Assembly (NCBI GenBank): GCA_010356995.1
Contig: ML996693.1
Location: 1,054,001-1,118,000 of the forward strand
Reading direction: 5' to 3'
Length of the DNA: 64,000 nt
Source of the DNA: Trichodelitschia bisporula
Taxonomy: Eukaryota
Position numbers and translations under genes: made by a program. The notes under the pieces are model-generated. The model was not told where the DNA came from. It saw only the letters and a program-made list of their open reading frames with translations, and searched no databases. This document shows, one piece after another, positions 2,986 through 43,043 of this stretch. Position 1 is the first letter of the stretch, and each line of letters opens with the position of its first letter.

Positions 2986-3584
2986 CGGGTAATGGGCGCT
3001 GGGTTTAGGTTTTGGGTAGCGGGTAGCGGGTTGTGGGTTGTGGGTTCTGGGTATCGGGCGGGGGGCGGGATTTAGGGTTAGGATTCGGTCTTTACGATGA
3101 ATGATTTGTACGAGTTTTGGACTGGGCTGGGGGAGTTGGGGCTGTGGGTAAGGGTTACCCACGAGATGACTACGTCTGGTTCGTTTTTAATTGCTAGTTT
3201 TAAAACCCTTTCCTTTAGGAATCATATGTAGGCATAGCCTCGAGATCGTTCCTTGAACATGTGTGTCCCTCCGCAGTGTCAGCCATAGAGTAATGGGGGC
3301 AAAGACCCAAGGATGAAGACGGTGCAAGATACCAAACTTTGCCTGCGGAGCGCGGGTCTTGGAGGCGAGGCAGGAAGGTTGGAGTCGGGGTATGTACGGG
3401 GTGTGCAGCGGAAGGTACGACGGGTCCTTCTGTGAAAAGACAGGTTTCTAAAGCGTACCTGCCTCCAGAACCACCACCTGTCTCCAGAATTGCACCTGCC
3501 TCCAGGATCCAGCGAGGACGTGGCCTCTTCCCACCTATATCCCTCTCCATCTCTCGCACATCACACTGCAAACCACCACCACTC

Positions 3585-3770
3585 ACCACTCAAACCACCA
3601 CTCAAACCACCACTCAAACCACCACTCAANNNNNNNNNNNNNNNNNNNNNNNNNNNNNNNNNNNNNNNNNNNNNNNNNNNNNNNNNNNNNNNNNNNNNNN
3701 NNNNNNNNNCACCACTCAAACCACCACTCAAATCACCACTCAAACCACCACTCAAACCACCACTCAAACC
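3585..3770 (+). repeat. 12-bp minisatellite (ACCACCACTCAA)n spanning an assembly gap (N run 3630-3709)
   Basis: Identical 12-mers on both sides of the N run. Confidence 0.9.
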
Positions 3771-3836
3771 ATCACCACTCCTTCACCTATCAATCACCGT
3801 CTGACATTGACTCGCAACCTAAGAAGCACCAGCAAA

Positions 3837-27569: not shown

Positions 27570-28282
27570 CCGTGGGCACGAATGTCCAGATAGCGCTAAA
27601 CCAGAAGAAGCCAGATCATGTGACCCCCACCAACCTCATCTATCCAACACCGCGTCAACCACAACCACGACTCTCCTCGATACATCGCAATGCTTCACAA
27701 AGGTCACACAGTACGGATGTACACCCACCAGAAACTGGGGCGAGCACGTCTACTTTCAGCTTCGCAATTAGTCTCCCACGGCTCCAATCCTCCACGCCAC
27801 CTCTTTCCCTCCAACGCGCACAGCTCGTCTTGATTACCCGCATAGCGGACCAAGCGGCATAGTCGACAGTGCGGAACGTCGTGACGTCTTGATTGAACTC
27901 CACCAACTGGGCTAGGGTTTGTGCTATCCAATCTCCCCCGCCATGCCGGCCATTTCCATCGCCGCACAGGGCCTGGGATGTCCCCCATCCGCCGTCCTCA
28001 AAGCCAGCGGATAAGTGCGCATGTATACTGCGGCACAGGCTATGTGTATACCCCGCGGACGTAACTCCCAATCACGCATGAAGGAATCATATAGACGCGA
28101 CCATCGCGGGTGCGGCCCAGAGCCCTTGCGCCGGAATTAGCTTTGAGCTTAATCAATGGTGTTTTGTCGATCCGCCTGCGTTCGTCCTCTTTTATCTCAG
28201 TGGGGGAGATCATTAGTGCTTGGTTCCCACCTCTTCTGTTTCCGTTCCTGAGAATCCTCTGCTCTCATCCCTCTAGTATCAA

Positions 28283-28352
28283 TATTCCAGCCCAGTTCTC
28301 TAGATTCCAGCCTAGTCTCCAGAACTCCAGCCTAGCCACCAGATTCCAGCCT
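28283..28352 (+). repeat. 18-bp degenerate tandem repeat (AGATTCCAGCCTAG-type) x4 just upstream of the CFEM ATG
   Basis: attccagccc / agattccagcct / agaactccagcct / agattccagcct at ~18-nt spacing. Confidence 0.6.
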
Positions 28353-28362
28353 CATCATAACC

Positions 28363-29004
28363 ATGAAGTCCTTCCTCACGCTCGCCCTCCTCGCCGCCAT
28401 CGGCACCGCAAAGCTCAATGCGCCCGCCTGCGCCGTACGTCCCCCCCACCGACTCCCACCCATCTAACCGTCTAGGACAACTGCATCTCCCGCGCCACCT
28501 CCTCCGACGGCTGCGCCTCCGCCTCCGACTTCTCCTGCCACTGCCGAAAGCAAGGCCTCATAGCCGCTCTCCAGCCCTGCATCGCCTCTGCCTGCCCCTA
28601 CGAAGGCGACCAGCAAGGTCCGCCCCCCCCTCCCTACCCCACTTAGACTAACCCCCCCAGCCGCGCACCACGCCATCAAATCCGCCTGCCAAGCCGCGGG
28701 CATCAAGATCTCCTTCTCGGTACCCAAGGCTCAACCGCATCTTGAGGCTCGTGCCGACGATATGGCGGGCCATGACATGAGTTCTGGGGCGACGACGGCT
28801 GCGCCTAAGGGAGCGGGCGCGGCGAAGGCGACGTCTACGACGAGTGGGGCGCCGAAGGGGACGAAGACGAGTCCGGCTAAGCTGGCGACGTCGTCGGCGG
28901 CTGGGAAGGGCGGGAAGCCTGCTGTTTATACGGGGGGTGCGCCGGGGCGGGAAGCGGGCGGTTTCCTTGGGGCGGTTTTTGCGGTGGCGGCGATGGCGCT
29001 GTGA
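28363..29004 (+). CDS. CFEM-domain, GPI-anchored secreted protein; introns 28435-28475 and 28618-28660
   Basis: Signal peptide MKSFLTLALLAAIGTA; PACADNCISRATSSDGCASASDFSCHC...PCIASAC...SAC (8-Cys CFEM pattern); Ser/Thr/Ala linker; YTGGA plus a hydrophobic GPI signal. Confidence 0.88.
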
Positions 29005-29794
29005 GGGGTGATTGGTGAGGGAAGGTGGTAATGGTGACGCCTTTCGAGGTGGACGAGATGGGAAAAATGAGTATCGTGGGTTCGTGGTTTCTTTGGTCCG
29101 TTTGCTTAGGTTGAGTTTCTAGGCATACCGGGTGGGATAATAGTCACTCCTTTTCTGGGCAAGCCCTTGATGTACCGCATTTTCAATTGTATCACGATTC
29201 ACTCCTTTACGGATTCGTAATCGACCACTGATCTGCAGTGCCGGCGGTTGCCATGTGATATGAGTACAGGACCAATGTACTGGAAGTTGCAACCGGCAAC
29301 GTCACTGCTGATGTCGACGTGAGGCAGAAGCATTGTTATCTCAGAAAGGAGCATACTTGTCTGAAGAAGGGACGTGACGTAATGTGCTCATGGTTGAGGG
29401 AAGGAGCATCGGGGGCCATGATCCATATATTTCGGACAGCCTCTCGACTCTCATCCTTTCATCGTCTTTATCTCCATCTTCACTTTATACGGTCGCCTGT
29501 TGCTCACGTCAAGCTTTGCTTCCATTAACTGCTACGGCTCACAGATCTGTCATACTGACAGCCACGTATTCTTCATGACTTTTGAAGCAAAGTAAGTTTA
29601 CTCCGCACCTTTCCTTCGGTACAACCCTCTTCTCTGTCATACCGAAGGTCAAAGTATGGTGTGCCTTCATCTTGCCTTTGCATGGCAACACAACAGTGCA
29701 AAACATCATTCACGACTAACTGCTTTTCGTCCACTCACAAAGGCCTCAGCATCCAATCGAGCCCACCCACCACCACGCGCGCCGCACCTAGCAC

Positions 29795-30262
29795 TCAAGC
29801 CGCCACCCTCGCTACATTCAAAAAGAACCGTCCCAACCACCCCACCCCGGCCCACCAAACCGCCGTCCTCAAATGGCCTGTCGCCTGCGTCCCGCCCGTA
29901 ACATACACTACCGCATGAAGAGCCCTCAACCCAAACCACCCCTTGATAAAGCCCATCAACTCCGCATGCCCCACGCCCGCCCACAACCCCGCCAGCACGG
30001 CCGCGACATACAGTGGAAGCGTTTCATGCGCGTTGGCAGTGGCGGCCTCGGCGCGCTCCCAGCGCGCGAAGATGTGGGGAGGCAGGGATGATTGGAGGTG
30101 TGACCGGAAGGAGGAGGACCGGGGTGAGGAATTGTCGAGAGTGGAGAGAGGGAGGGGGCCGCGCGCGAGGTGCATGGCGTAGACGTGGGGGAGGAGGCTG
30201 AAGATGTGATAGGCGGGGATGGAGAGAAGGGGGATGTTGTAGGCGGAGAGGAGGGAGGCCAT
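29795..30262 (-). CDS. MAPEG-family membrane protein
   Basis: Starts MASLLSAYNIPLLSIPAY; contains DNSSPR, ERAEAATANAHETLPLYVAAVLAG, RALHAVVYV, LRTAVWW, matching the MAPEG pattern. Confidence 0.8.
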   Translation of the reverse strand: MASLLSAYNIPLLSIPAYHIFSLLPHVYAMHLARGPLPLSTLDNSSPRSSSFRSHLQSSLPPHIFARWERAEAATANAHETLPLYVAAVLAGLWAGVGHAELMGFIKGWFGLRALHAVVYVTGGTQATGHLRTAVWWAGVGWLGRFFLNVARVAA

Positions 30263-30993
30263 GGTGGAGGGTTCTTGGGGGGAGAAGGTTGTGCTGAGGA
30301 ATGGGTGGGTCGCGCGGTGTTGATTTTGTGAGCTACATTCGAGGGATGGGGAGCTCTTAAAAAGCGGCGATGCTGACGTGAGGCGGCCCCCCAGACAACG
30401 TTCCGGTGCGCGGGCCGGACAAATGATTAGTTCCGCCTCCGTCGAAGCGCGGCGCAATGCTGCTGTACCGGTAAATACGCATTCGTAGTGGACGCCAAGG
30501 ATCGGCTTTTGTTCCGAGTCGGGTTATTAATCTGTCCTGCGCTCTGACTTGCGGGCCGGGAGGGCTTAACCTTACCCGCGTCGCTTGGCAGCCTTGCATG
30601 TCCTGCACTCCGAGGGCGGCTTGATTCCGTGTTGGACAGGCGAATCGGAAGTGGGATGGGGAGTGTGTACAATGCGGAATTGGAGGTGAGGGCTGATGTC
30701 TGCCTTTATTCTTTGGCGTGGAGCGGAGGGCGATGGGGCAGTGGACTTCCGCCGTATCGTTCATGTCGGACGAGATCAGGACGAGCGGCGGCTGGCAGCA
30801 GAAAGCAGATCCGATTCATATAGACACGACACGCTCACCACGAGAGCCATGTCGTAACCATCCTTCAAGTCTCCAACTCAGGTCCCCACCCCATCCCCCA
30901 CCTCCCCAATTCCCCACCCGCATCAACCCCCTCACCTCCCGCCCTACACGCAGTTAGCCATTCCCCTCCCCAGAAAAAACAGGGAATACTCAT

Positions 30994-32700
30994 AAAAAAT
31001 GGCCCCCCGCCATCCCCTCAAGAACAGTAGGAGCAGGTACCAGACAAAAAATTAACCGCGCGCACCTCCCCCCTCCCAACACACCCACCACCCCTCCCCC
31101 CAACCCCTGCCTTCCCCACCCAGCCTCCCCGCCGAAGTTACCTACCCACACGTCATCAACACGGGAACCCCGCAGCTGAGCCTAGGCCCGCTAAACCGAC
31201 TCCCTTCCACCTTGACACGCTGGCAGCCCGTACGCGCAGACAAGCCGGGGCTTTGAACACCGCGGGGCGGGTTCCCGCGTGAACGGCTGGGGTTCCAGTG
31301 GCTTTGGTAGAGAGGGGGACGGGGAGCGGGTACCTGGCTTCAGCGCGCGGGGCCGCTCAGCGCGGGGCGTTTGACCTCGCAGTGCGGTTTGGCTGTCAGG
31401 GTCGGTGGGGGGGCGGGAACAGAGGCGTAGACACGTGGTTCGGGCTTCGGTACGACGCAATGTCCGCAGGACATAAATGCATCTCCGCGCATCTCGCAGC
31501 TTCCCTCCAAACGTGCATCTCCGTTGCAGGGCTAGGCCCGTACCGCAAGATCTCCCACCCAGTGCTGGACTCTCTGTTGTGTCGCATGCCCCTCGGAGAT
31601 GGGTCTTTGGTTTCCGTTCAGCCGCGCGCGTGCGCAACCGTCAGGCAAAGGCGGACAAAGGACGTCTGGGAAAACCGCTTGTGGCCGTGCCTAGCGGCAC
31701 GGCGTTCGGCGCTTGACGCCTCGGGCGGGGCCGGAGGCGGCGATTAACGCGGGTGGTCTGGCATCCCCCATGGGGGACGGCGCTGGTAGCGGGTGCTGGG
31801 GCGCTGGCGCGGGAAGCAAGCCCGCGAAGATGAGGGGGGGAAACGGGACCCGGGATCGAACAAGTCGATCCCGAGAAAGGAGACGTGCGGGTGTCTTCGC
31901 CAGAGGGTGGAATCCGGGTTGCATCGGCAGGTCGTTGTGTCCGGGGACGGTTGGTTTTGCTCAAGCTCTGCTGCTGGACTCCGACGAACCCTGGTTTTCG
32001 CAAAGGGCAGCAGGATATCAGACTTCCGGGGCGTGGCGACAAGTCGATGCTGATGAACGGGGTACCGGTTTCCCGGGCCCACCATCTGAGGTCAGACTAC
32101 GTCGCGCCCGTCTTCAACCACTTGAGCCAGTGCGCTAGACCAGGTGACCGGGCCTGAGGGCTGCGGTCCAGAGCAGAGCGAGCGCCACCAACCGCCGTCC
32201 GGCGAGCCTGGAATCCGATATACGCAACCCGTAGATCTGGCGACCGCAAATCCAGTCCCTCAGCTCATGAAGATCCCAAAGACACTCCCCAAAAAACAGG
32301 GCGTCCGACGTCCCCCACCTGGATCCTCCTCATCTTCGCAGGCAGCTTCATCCAACGCTGCCAATCATGACCGAGTCACATATGCCGGACAGAAAAAGCC
32401 GACGCTCGCCTCTTCGAGGCATCCCATGGCAATCTCCATCCACACGGCGCCCTAACCGGGGTTGGGCACTTCGTCGGGCCGCACAGAGCACGACACCCGG
32501 CAGCCCTTCGAACGCGCTTAGTTCCCGGAAAGGACAACTCGAGAGCCCGCGAGGCTGGACCGGGGAATGGCTAGGGTTAAGTTCCGAATCCTTTTTCGTC
32601 CCCAGCGCGGCGCAGCGGTGTGACCCGCTGCAGACATCGCGCTGGTTAGTGGACGAAAGGGAACGGCGCACTTTGGGGAGGGGGGGGTGCGTGGTTCTGT
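30994..32700 (-). ncRNA. TER: Putative telomerase RNA (TER), ~1.7 kb; 5' end approximate
   Basis: Template UAACCCUA (32579-32572) directly 3' of a long hairpin (32664-32581). 5'/3' closing inverted repeat (32673-32696 with 31054-31079). Sm site AAUUUUUUG (31053-31045). Terminal intron AUGAGU..GCUAAC..UAG (30993-30944). No credible ORF. Confidence 0.85.
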
Positions 32701-33229
32701 GTGTTGAGAGCGGCGGCTGGGTGGGAGATGATGCGGTGAGAGACCAGGGTGCAACTTCGACGATGGGGCGGGGAGGAGCTGGGTGGTGAGATGGCGGTGG
32801 TGATGCGTATGGGGGGAGAGGGTTGGTGGTTGCGGAATGGTTTTAAGGGATGCGGGCACGCGACGCGTCGGGGCTTGGCAAACATGCGCCAAGATGGAAG
32901 CCGCGAACGTTCGATGTGGCGTCTGAAGTCCATCGCGAGCATGTGATACGGTATGTATCGGCGAAGGAAAGTAACTAACGACTCAAGTTGTTGTTTGATG
33001 ATAGTACAACGAAGTTCGTCATCATCGCCCCACAATACTGTACTACGTAGATGCCACAAACTCAAAATTCCCACTGATAAGGTTATCCTCTGCTCCGTCA
33101 ATCTCCACCAACTGAACTTGTCAAAGTAATCCCCCATCTTCACCATCGCGGTTGCAGAACTGAAAGAAGCCTTATCGCCCCGCGACACATCATAACGCCA
33201 CTTACGCTCTGTCGACGGGACCCGACATC

Positions 33230-36200
33230 ATGGAAGTAGACTCGGCCTCGCCAGAACCCTCAGGTGTGACGCCGCAGGAAGCAATCTCCAAAGCAGAAGC
33301 CTTTCTGGAGCCGGCGCTTGCCTACGGTAAGTATCGAAATACATCCGCATCAGGAATTTAACACGCCGTAGCCCGCCAGCATCCCGATCAGACCACGAGC
33401 ATCAGCTCCCGTCTTGCCAACGATGAGCTAGCACAGCGCGAGGCCCTCGAGCACGCATGTCAACATCTCACCGCCATTCACCAAAGCCTCTTAGATGCGC
33501 AGCGGATGGGGAGCAAGCAAGTCTACGACTCCACCCTCCTGACCACCGTGTACTCCCTCATCGACTTCATCCTCCTGGAAGCCCTCTACCCGAGACTCCC
33601 CGAGGGCGCTGGTAACCCCCTCGAGCTCCGCAAACGGGCTTTGTTCTGGAAGTCCATGGACCGGAACTACACGGTCCCTCCCGACAATGGCACCTTCTAT
33701 GATGCCATCCGCGCTTTCCGCCAAATTACGCGCAGCATAGGCGAAGGCCTTGAGCCCCTACTGCGGAACCGTGCGCTGAAGCACATCATCGTACTAGATG
33801 CCTTCCTGATCCTGTCGCGTAATGACTGGGAGCAGTTGGTTGGAACGGCATGCTCGTTCAGCGACTACATAGTCGCGCTCCCCACGGACGCACTGATGAC
33901 AGAAATGTCCGCCCTAGTAAAAGCGAATGCACCGTCCTGGCTGAAGAACCCTCTCACTTCCTCCCTCTCCCATCTCCCCCTCCGCCCCGATGGCGTCCGC
34001 AGCGTCTTCGAGTATCTCGCACGCGCGCGGCACAGACCCAACACGCAGCCGGAAACTGACATCCCCACCCCCTCCAAAGGCCCAACCTTCACCCTCGAAG
34101 TCCTCCAAGACGCAGCCCGTCTCCTCTCCTCCGTCCCCTCAACCATGACCGCAAAAACTTGGCTCGCGGGCATTGGGCCGCAACTCTTCGCCCTTCTCGA
34201 CGCTGGCGGCGACATGAGCAAGGCGGCAGCTTACGTCATCGTCTTCGGGATTCTGTCCAAGAAAGCCCTCGGCGCAAGCAATGCCCCCGGCTGGACCACC
34301 TTCGCTCTCCCAATCCGCGACGCGCTGTACCCGACCGCGCCCCTGGAGCGCTCCCCCCCAGACCTCTCGGACCTAGAGCCCGTCGTCGTCCCGGAGGCCA
34401 CGCTACACACGGCACTAAGGCGCCTCTTGACCCTCGTGCATTCCCACCCTCACCCAGCCGTCGCAAAGCGGCTAGTCGGCATGTGCCGCGGGCCCCTCTG
34501 GGCCATTGCCGCATACGACAAATCGCCTGTCGTAGCAGCGCAGTGGTCCGACCTCGCACTCCGCCTGTTGGCGCGCTACATTAGCCTATTCCCCGACTCA
34601 GACCCTCTGCTCAACGTCTTCGACAGCATGCTGTGGGACGGTGCCGCGGAATGGGAATTCGCCCCCGGTGACCAAGGCGGGATAGCAATCCGCGTCCGCA
34701 CGCCGGAGGGGAATATCAATCTTGAAGCCCTGCAGGAGAAGATCGAGCGGCGCATCGGATCGTTCCTTAAGCTTGTGGAGGCGCTGCAGCTTGATGCGCA
34801 GAAGATGGCGGAGCTCCTCCTCGCCATAACGCGACGCTGGCTAAGTGCGGAGCACAGGGAGGGCAAGTCGCCGATTCAAAACCTCGCCCGGACTGCCCTC
34901 GCGCAAGCCCTGCTCGAGAAGCACCTCGCGCTGCTCTCCAGCTCGCCCATCCAAGCGCTCACATTTATCTCCTCGCTGCTGCGCATCCTGGGCGACCAAC
35001 CGGCGCCGAGCGACCCAGCGCTGCTGATGCAGCCCGAAAGTCCAGCGTATGCGAATATTATCTCTGATTGGCCCGAGGACCCCTCCAAGGAAGCCCTCGT
35101 GGAGCAGCGAGAGGACATGATGTTCACGGCACTGAGTGTCATGAACGCCGTACTTGCGGCGCCGCTGCCTGTAGACCCGAAGTTGGAGACCACACTCAAA
35201 GACATCGAGGATAACATGCGCCGCGCCTGGAATATGCCGTACCGTCTGCAGTGGAGCGCCCGCATCACCAACACCATCAAGCGCCTGTCCGCCCTCCGCG
35301 AAAAGCTAAACACTACACAGACCCCCACCGCCCCGCCTTACACCAAGCCCTCCTTCCTCGAATCCCTCCCCTCAATCCGTACCCAGCTCTCCAGCGACCA
35401 ACCACCCATCCGCCGCTCCGCCCTCGCAACCCTAGACTCACTCCTCACCCCAGAAGCCAATCCCGACACCCAGCTAGCAGCCACCCTCCTGACCTCCCTC
35501 CTCCTCTCCGAACCAGAAAGCTTCGTCTACCTCCCCGGCATCAGCTCCCTCCGGCGCCTCGCCTCTCTCGATCCCCGGCGCGCGGCCAACACGCTCGTCG
35601 ACGCCCTGTCCGACCCCTCGGAAGCAGGCTCCGTCGACGGGCGCTTGCGCGTCGCTGAGGCGCTCATCGCCGTCGTCCCGGTCCTCGCTGGGAGCACGGA
35701 GGGCAGGCTCGCGATCCCGCACGTCGCTGAAGTGGCGATTAAGGTTGCGGGTAGGCGCGGGCGTCGCGAACGCGAGGCGTCCGAGCGGGTTAAGGCGGAG
35801 CGGTTGGCGCGGCGGAAGCGCAAGGAGGCGGAGCGGGCGTGGGGCGGGGAGGTGCCTGAGGTTCCAGACCTGGAGGACGGGTATGAGGAGGAGGAAGGTG
35901 AGGCTGCGAGGGAAAAGCGCAGGAGAGAGATAGAGGCTATTCAGCGCATTGTGCGTGGCTGGGAGGACACGGGGTTTGAGGAGGATGTGAGGGTGCGGGC
36001 GAGCGCGTTGGGCGTGCTGGCTGGCGTGTTTGAGAATGGGGGAGGCGGTGGGGTGGTTGGAAGTGCGGTCGATCTTGTGCTTAGCGTGCTGGTTATTGAG
36101 ACGGGGACTGAAAGGGCGGTGCTAAGGCGTGCTGCGGCGATGGTGCTGCTTGGGCTGGTGAATGGGATGGACGGGGCGTATAAACGGGGCGAACAGCCGT

Positions 36201-36451
36201 ACGTTCTAGCGGCGGAGAAGTGGTCTGAGGTAAGGCGGGTGGTGGAGTGGGTAAGCGCGGAGGATGGAGACGATGTTGTAAGGGACCATGCGGAGACGGT
36301 GAAGGAGAATTTGGAAGCGGTGGCGATGATAGGGGTTTTGGCTGAGGGGGAGATGGAGAGGAGGAGAGTGGAGGAGTTTGGGAAGGAGGGGTTGAGGGGG
36401 TTGAGCCTAGGGGAGAGTGGGGGTAGAGCGGGGATTGAGGAGGTTGAGTAG
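33230..36451 (+). CDS. RTP1: RNA polymerase II assembly/nuclear import factor Rtp1 (TANGO6 homolog); intron 33327-33371
   Basis: ARM/HEAT-like ~1050-aa protein with LPLRPDGVRSVFE, WEFAPGDQGGIAIR, ESFVYL, DGRLRVAEAL, DVRVRASALGVL, VLRRAAAMV. ATG 33230 plus a GTAAGT..TAG intron joins in frame to the long ORF. Confidence 0.85.
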
Positions 36452-42943: not shown

Positions 42944-43043
42944 GGCAAGGTGGCCGAGTTGGTTAAGGCGTCAGGTTAAGGTCTCCCTTAGCAACAATAT
43001 CCTGATTCAGAAATGAGCACGAGTTCGAATCTCGTCCTTGTCA
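42944..43043 (+). tRNA. tRNA-Leu(AAG) with ~18-nt intron
   Basis: GGCAAGG/CCTTGTC acceptor stem; A box TGGCCGAGTTGG; anticodon stem TCAGG/CCTGA with loop TT-AAG-G; intron after position 37 containing CCTTA; long variable arm; B box GAGTTCGAATC; T-run terminator ~43057. Confidence 0.93.

Follow-up and report, generated by a model that had tools for sequence, protein, structure and literature searches.

How is the 3' end of a telomerase RNA (TER) formed if its gene ends in an intron whose first nucleotide is A instead of G? This question is raised by a 64,000-nt stretch of the genome of Trichodelitschia bisporula, a member of the Dothideomycetes, order Phaeotrichales (NCBI GenBank assembly GCA_010356995.1, contig ML996693.1, positions 1,054,001 to 1,118,000 of the forward strand), to which we refer as the window and within which all positions are counted. 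We propose that a 50-nt segment of its minus strand is the terminal intron of a Dothideomycete TER gene and that the RNA's 3' end is produced by spliceosomal cleavage stopping after the first step, a reading we regard as probable. The same mode of 3'-end formation had been suggested by an earlier interpretation of the letters (the sequence-only reading), and it is supported here by the sequence together with its context, short of proof.

A candidate intron, ordinary except for its A-initiated 5' splice site

On the minus strand, GGCCAUUUUUU ends at 30994 directly before AUGAGU, resulting in the layout GGCCAU6/AUGAGU..GCUAACU..UAG at the 3' end of the candidate RNA, the slash marking the predicted cut (Table 1). 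The minus-strand letters bear out the elements named by the sequence-only reading, i.e. a 50-nt intron with AUGAGU, GCUAAC and UAG, an A instead of a G at +1 combined with a consensus branch point and acceptor, and a terminal AU6 tract at 31000-30994. Its description of 50 nt as the typical intron size proved roughly right, the three RNA-confirmed introns within 28000-36000, which form our comparison set, measuring 41, 43 and 45 nt. The length and the branch-site spacing of the candidate match those of the local introns, A+1 therefore being its only defect, and position +3 of GU donors in the window already tolerates A or G. Judged by its letters, the candidate is, apart from A+1, an ordinary local intron.

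Further upstream the minus strand carries AAUUUUUUG at 31053-31045 with U as the next letter. This had been taken as a full Sm site; the U-tract is present, although the site ends in GU rather than in the GR of the consensus AU5-6GR (PMC3603654), and we refer to it as Sm-like. Five U-tracts of at least five nucleotides are found on the minus strand in 32560-30860, three of them being grouped at 31051, 30999 and 30979. GUACCU at 31040, proposed as a weaker alternative donor, exists and has neither a G at +5 nor a CURAY/YAG partner of its own. Scanning all donors from the template to 30860, we found AUGAGU alone to have a consensus CUAAC branch-site partner; no other donor in this interval does.

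Table 1. Features of the candidate telomerase RNA locus and the local introns used for comparison, in window coordinates
Feature	Position	Strand	Remarks
Candidate TER body	30994-32826	minus	about 1.83 kb; contig end to predicted cleavage site
Candidate terminal intron	30993-30944	minus	50 nt; AUGAGU..GCUAACU..UAG; branch A to 3' splice-site G 10 nt
Non-canonical 5' splice site AUGAGU	30993-30988	minus	A at +1; read from sequence
Branch site GCUAACU (GCUAAC)	30958-30952	minus	branch A at 30954; read from sequence
3' splice site UAG	30946-30944	minus	read from sequence
AUUUUUU tract adjoining the 5' splice site	31000-30994	minus	candidate Sm/Lsm site; predicted 3' end 30994
Sm-like site AAUUUUUUGU	31053-31044	minus	sole AU4-7G match (31052-31044) from template to 30860
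U6 inside the intron	30979-30974	minus	read from sequence
GUACCU	31040-31035	minus	read from sequence
Template UAACCCUA	32579-32572	minus	complementary to TAGGGTTA, a single TTAGGG repeat and two alignment nt; read from sequence
Template-boundary-type hairpin	32660-32590	minus	directly 5' of the template; fold
Long helix, 13 bp	32729-32717 with 31562-31550	minus	perfect pairing
Long helix, 12 bp	32339-32328 with 31835-31824	minus	perfect pairing; nested in the 13-bp helix
Intron segment GGGGAAUGGCUA	30966-30955	minus	last base one before branch A; complementary to UAGCCAUUCCCC
UAGCCAUUCCCC	32573-32562	minus	last two template nt plus 3' flank; 12 perfect bp with 30966-30955
RNA-confirmed intron	28435-28475		41 nt; GUACGU, CUAAC; branch A to 3' splice-site G 8 nt
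RNA-confirmed intron	28618-28660		43 nt; GUCCGC, CUAAC; branch A to 3' splice-site G 9 nt
RNA-confirmed intron	33327-33371		45 nt; GUAAGU, UUAAC; branch A to 3' splice-site G 10 nt

The upstream stretch resembles a fungal telomerase RNA

RNA data were available as contigs of two runs (X1 and X2) of one study, the RNA nature of which is a guess and which give neither strand nor ends. Three GT..AG segments of 41, 43 and 45 nt are missing from the X1 and X2 contigs, which therefore derive from spliced RNA. Over the candidate TER the contigs extend from 31092 to 33325 (X1) and from 31127 to 32826 (X2; 1700 nt), so that a stretch from about 32826 to 31092 free of open reading frames (ORFs) lies under contigs of complementary DNA type and has the intron module at its 3' end. 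Of the limits of the candidate body, 32826 is a contig end only and 30994 a prediction; the size, taken from the 1700-nt contig, falls within the about 1.3-2.1 kb expected of a Pezizomycotina TER, the N. crassa TER having 2049 nt. A Pfam search of stop-to-stop ORFs in this stretch returned no family for any of the eight ORFs. With Rfam at gathering threshold the only match in the window is a transfer RNA (tRNA) at 42944-43043, the candidate stretch remaining without a family, and at E up to 10 the region 30500-33300 gave two sub-threshold chance matches only.

About 1.6 kb upstream of the intron module and on the same strand lies the template UAACCCUA, in which 'UA' is repeated at both ends; the TTAGGG type is deduced from this template. 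Directly 5' of it a hairpin of the template-boundary type is predicted. The fold of 32700-32560 has -52.9 kcal/mol with a z-score of -4.5, none of 200 shuffles being as stable, and in the full-length minimum free energy (MFE) structure the helix reaches 32584/32585, which pair with 32666/32665. A template-boundary helix is found at the corresponding place in filamentous-fungal TERs (PMC3603654; PMC3592445). The same hairpin is also the source of a sub-threshold Rfam match to mir-4738.

Between 32826 and 30944 we count three perfect helices of at least 12 bp, compared to a mean of 0.17 in 300 shuffles, none of which reaches three; this excess indicates a structured RNA. Two of them, one nested in the other (Table 1), enclose the template and a region of U- and A-tracts and might represent the 'core-enclosing helices' of Pezizomycotina TERs. 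As possible parts of a triple-helix pseudoknot, U-tracts are present at 32397 and 32296 and, as judged by eye, strands rich in A close to 32000 and 31955, and CCCUGUUUUU might pair with GAAAACCAGGG.

Three further features were considered and set aside. Pairing between a 5' leader rich in C and a 3' tract rich in G (32670-32850 with 31062-31135) is matched by 42 of 200 shuffles, the complementarity being compositional only. Folds of 30994-31420, 30940-31060 and 30994-31060 are no better than shuffles (z-scores 0.81, 0.02 and 0.05), and therefore no 3' hairpin of the small nuclear RNA type is claimed. The Aspergillus promoter motif CRCGDCGCG is found 41 nt ahead of the contig end (32867-32859) and occurs 10 times in the window compared to 7.8 expected occurrences; it is therefore not evidence.

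Comparison with known 3' modules and a model for 3'-end formation

The terminal intron of the N. crassa TER is reportedly short and normal save for a 5' splice site beginning with A, and conserved across Pezizomycotina (the report in question being that of Qi et al. 2015, Nat Commun 6:6105). The candidate shares with this type of terminal intron the A-initiated donor, the otherwise normal short intron and A+1 alone being taken as the block; it differs by G instead of A at +3 (AUGAGU vs AUAAGU) and by being known from sequence alone. In Aspergilli, CGGC3-5U7-12 stands directly before AUAAGU (AUACGU in A. nidulans), followed by the branch site GCUAACU and the 3' splice site (PMC3603654; PMC4299874). 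Common to this module and the candidate are the GC-rich run and U-tract before the donor, the retention of A+1, U+2, G+5 and U+6, the identical GCUAACU and the nearby 3' splice site. In contrast, the U-tract of the candidate is U6 with a preceding A rather than U7-12, an extra Sm-like site is present 52 nt upstream and the variant position is +3, the neighbouring position +4 already varying in AUACGU of A. nidulans. Comparing the motifs one by one, the order, spacing and branch-site sequence match the Aspergillus/Neurospora module, the donor differing only by G at +3.

An A. niger intron placed into S. pombe TER1 is cleaved and yields active RNA, A+1 blocking step two, and the A1G exchange in this intron leads to full splicing and short telomeres (PMC4299874). 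Reviews ascribe the block in Aspergillus and N. crassa to A+1 (PMC5199203; PMC9564094) and state that spliceosomal cleavage is used by all known filamentous-fungal TERs (PMC4993307); the sequence-only reading had likewise stated that an A-initiated AUAAGU prevents exon ligation in Neurospora and Aspergillus TERs. S. pombe TER1 corresponds to what is proposed for the candidate in that the first step of splicing makes its 3' end, at which, being U-rich, Sm proteins act first and Lsm proteins afterwards (Box et al. 2008, described in PMC4299874). Its donor is a canonical GU, however, and the block consists of a strong branch site and a long distance separating it from the 3' splice site, compared to 10 nt and an A donor here. 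The normal branch-to-3' splice site distance together with A+1 thus fits the Neurospora/Aspergillus type and not the S. pombe type. The TER1 RNAs of S. cryophilus and S. octosporus have their mature end within an Sm/Lsm-like site and the 5' splice site 14 and 27 nt further downstream, implying trimming after cleavage, the block being a C at +3 that over-stabilises U6 pairing and not A+1 (PMC4299874). These 14- and 27-nt gaps therefore provide a precedent for the 52-nt gap observed here.

This supports a model according to which RNA polymerase II would make a minus-strand precursor from about 32826 to beyond 30944, on which the spliceosome would assemble at the otherwise ordinary short intron defined by AUGAGU, GCUAACU and UAG. 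The first transesterification would release the 5' exon with a 3' hydroxyl at 30994, directly after AU6. A+1 would be unable to contact the G of the 3' splice site, i.e. the contact between first and last intron nucleotide, exon ligation would fail and the cut 5' exon would be set free as telomerase RNA. The end may then stay at the U-tract, presumably bound in the Lsm manner, or be trimmed back toward the Sm-like site at 31053-31044; on our analysis the final end could be either 30994 or, after trimming, a position at about 31045.

Points against the proposal and alternative explanations

Two groups of observations weigh against this model. The first concerns the 3' module. AUGAGU differs from the published AUAAGU and AUACGU, its behaviour being predicted only, and the Sm-like site does not adjoin the 5' splice site but is found 52 nt away from it, on the upstream side. 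The G1A exchange in the S. pombe TER1 intron blocked step one (PMC4299874), so the effects of A+1 are context dependent. A loose pattern for A-initiated introns (AT[AG]NGT..CT[AG]A[CT]..YAG) matches 11 times on both strands of the window, its GU-form counterpart 33 times; the intron-like motif alone is therefore weak. The 3' end, a lariat and the absence of a spliced form are not seen in the contigs, which stop short: no listed contig covers about 30883-31091 in X1 or 30883-31126 in X2, the bin depths being fully explained by the contigs listed, and the predicted end, the intron and a 30994/30943 junction are thus all absent from them. Since the gap follows an 80-nt G-rich tract and the contigs cannot show ends, it is evidence neither way. 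In X1, one contig aligns from 30913 upward, the 179 letters below this point being unmatched; it probably represents a G-rich cross-match from another locus.

The composite U5+ATRAGT+N20-50+CTRAY+N2-20+YAG, composed after the site had been seen, matches once in the window, and none of 100 dinucleotide shuffles contains any match. TTTTATRNGT alone matches once compared to 0.25 expected, at least one match occurring in 24 of 100 shuffles. Chance is not clearly excluded by the motif alone, and the weight therefore rests on the context, in which the template, the hairpin with a z-score of -4.5, the ORF-free body and, at the 3' end, the sole Sm-like site and the cluster of U-tracts coincide.

These observations bear on an explanation in which the RNA is a telomerase RNA and AUGAGU, GCUAAC and UAG are unused, its end being generated upstream through termination with exonucleolytic trimming as far as the Sm-like site, in a Nrd1-Nab3-like manner as in S. 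cerevisiae TLC1, or being formed at another site. The presence of an Sm-like site close to consensus, 52 nt upstream of the splice site, and the frequency of loose A-initiated intron-like strings are in line with it, as is the Nrd1/Nab3 route known from budding yeast (PMC4299874; PMC4993307). It leaves aside, however, that the composite with its adjoining U-tract is unique in the window, that the Aspergillus module is reproduced down to GCUAACU (PMC3603654) and that all known filamentous-fungal TERs are reviewed as using spliceosomal cleavage (PMC4993307), and we consider it rather unlikely.

The second group of observations concerns the identity of the RNA. Scans and folds did not convincingly identify two defining features of TERs, the pseudoknot and the three-way junction with P6/P6.1. 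Applying the description of P6.1 as a 4-bp stem with an NUNGN loop in a three-way junction (PMC3592445), a strict scan gave two matches (32379 and 31868), neither within a convincing junction, and looser scans gave 3-bp candidates only, e.g. GAC-AUUGC-GUC at 31464, with indecisive local folds. A second template-like string, CCUAACCCUAAA, lies at 3071-3082 on the minus strand. A metagenome scan with the protein of the neighbouring RTP1-like gene yielded 171 pattern stretches, none of them confirmed; a 20-nt string from the template region had no match in metagenome contigs.

The stretch might accordingly be another long non-coding or promoter-associated transcript, or belong to the RTP1-like gene as an antisense or 5' extension, the motifs being coincidental and the true TER lying elsewhere, e.g. 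near 3080. This would agree with the template-type string TAACCCTA occurring twice in the window (0.38 expected), with the unproven junction and pseudoknot and with one X1 contig joining the stretch to the RTP1-like messenger RNA (mRNA), given that contigs do not reveal the strand. The site near 3080, however, lies in C/A-rich low-complexity repeats, immediately beyond a repetitive ORF of the plus strand (1816-2985; without a Pfam match) and antisense to it, and the coincidence of a template, an adjoining strong hairpin, an ORF-free 1.7-kb contig, an excess of long helices and a family-type 3' module argues against such a transcript, making this explanation very unlikely.

A complementarity between template flank and intron

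The intron segment GGGGAAUGGCUA pairs perfectly over 12 bp with UAGCCAUUCCCC next to the template, a pairing spotted after the fact. Dinucleotide-shuffled introns reach 12 contiguous pairs in 3 of 1000 cases against the RNA body and in 0 of 1000 against the 61-nt template zone, and of 2553 minus-strand segments of 50 nt, only two, both overlapping the intron, reach 12 pairs. Several findings speak against a functional pairing: the flank is C-rich and the entire 3' region G-rich, the G-rich tract 31136-31097 offers better duplex energies and the full-length MFE structure joins the flank to 31102-31127.

Given this complementarity, the mature RNA could run through the 'intron', 30966-30955 being a structural strand that pairs with 32573-32562 and the branch-site likeness of GGCUAAC being partly a by-product. 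The rarity of 12 perfect bp under shuffling is consistent with such an RNA, whereas the MFE structure prefers for the flank the G-rich tract with the better duplex energy, and U6/AUGAGU and a UAG at family-typical spacing would be left unexplained. To our knowledge no known TER architecture has a helix between the template 3' flank and the terminal intron. We regard this explanation as highly improbable.

If the RNA is cleaved at 30994 as we propose, the GGGGAAUGGCUA/UAGCCAUUCCCC helix could still act as a switch present in the precursor only, coupling 3'-end processing to template availability. We think this unlikely. Were it true, the helix could mask the template until the spliceosomal cut or, alternatively, tune cleavage by competing with U2 at the branch site. 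We know of no telomerase RNA for which such coupling has been described.

Significance

The mechanism itself is already published. The species and the spelling AUGAGU are new relative to the sources consulted; a literature search combining telomerase RNA and AUGAGU gave no match, Qi et al. 2015 and the supplement of Qi et al. 2012 lying outside its reach. The candidate would contribute a TER whose 3' end is made by the spliceosome, from an early and isolated lineage of Dothideomycetes, and enlarge the set behind the view that in filamentous ascomycetes A-initiated 'half-splicing' is the ancestral state. It further suggests that the crippled donor can have G at +3, fitting a model in which only A+1 matters and U+2, G+5 and U+6 are kept. 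It would annotate an RNA gene that no Rfam model detects and provides a search signature for fungal genomes, i.e. a template, a U-tract with AURNGU, then GCUAAC and YAG. By itself the finding opens no new question.

Neighbouring genes and further observations

On the plus strand, positions 33230-36451 hold the gene of an RTP1-family protein with the Pfam families RTP1_C1 and RTP1_C2. This protein is 100% identical to one of Trichodelitschia bisporula, and its next relatives share only 27-33% identity. In X2 the contig of the candidate TER (to 32826) and that of the RTP1-like mRNA (from 32798) share 29 nt, and in X1 both are contained in one contig; the X2 overlap at 32798-32826 looks as if divergent transcripts overlapped head to head.

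Downstream, a MAPEG-family gene occupies 29539-30882 on the minus strand; in X1 as well as in X2 its contigs start at 30882, a position 62 nt beyond the UAG. A TER precursor would have to end in, or read into, the promoter of this gene, the contig depth of which in X2 is 1646.8 compared to about 23-29 for its neighbours.

Elsewhere in the window, an assembly gap (a run of N at 3629-3709) lies inside a 12-nt tandem repeat array at 3564-3775 with the unit CACCACTCAAAC. The tRNA at 42944-43043 on the plus strand is a 100-nt Rfam match of 49.9 bits and presumably contains an intron, ARAGORN in its bacterial setting reporting nothing at this position.

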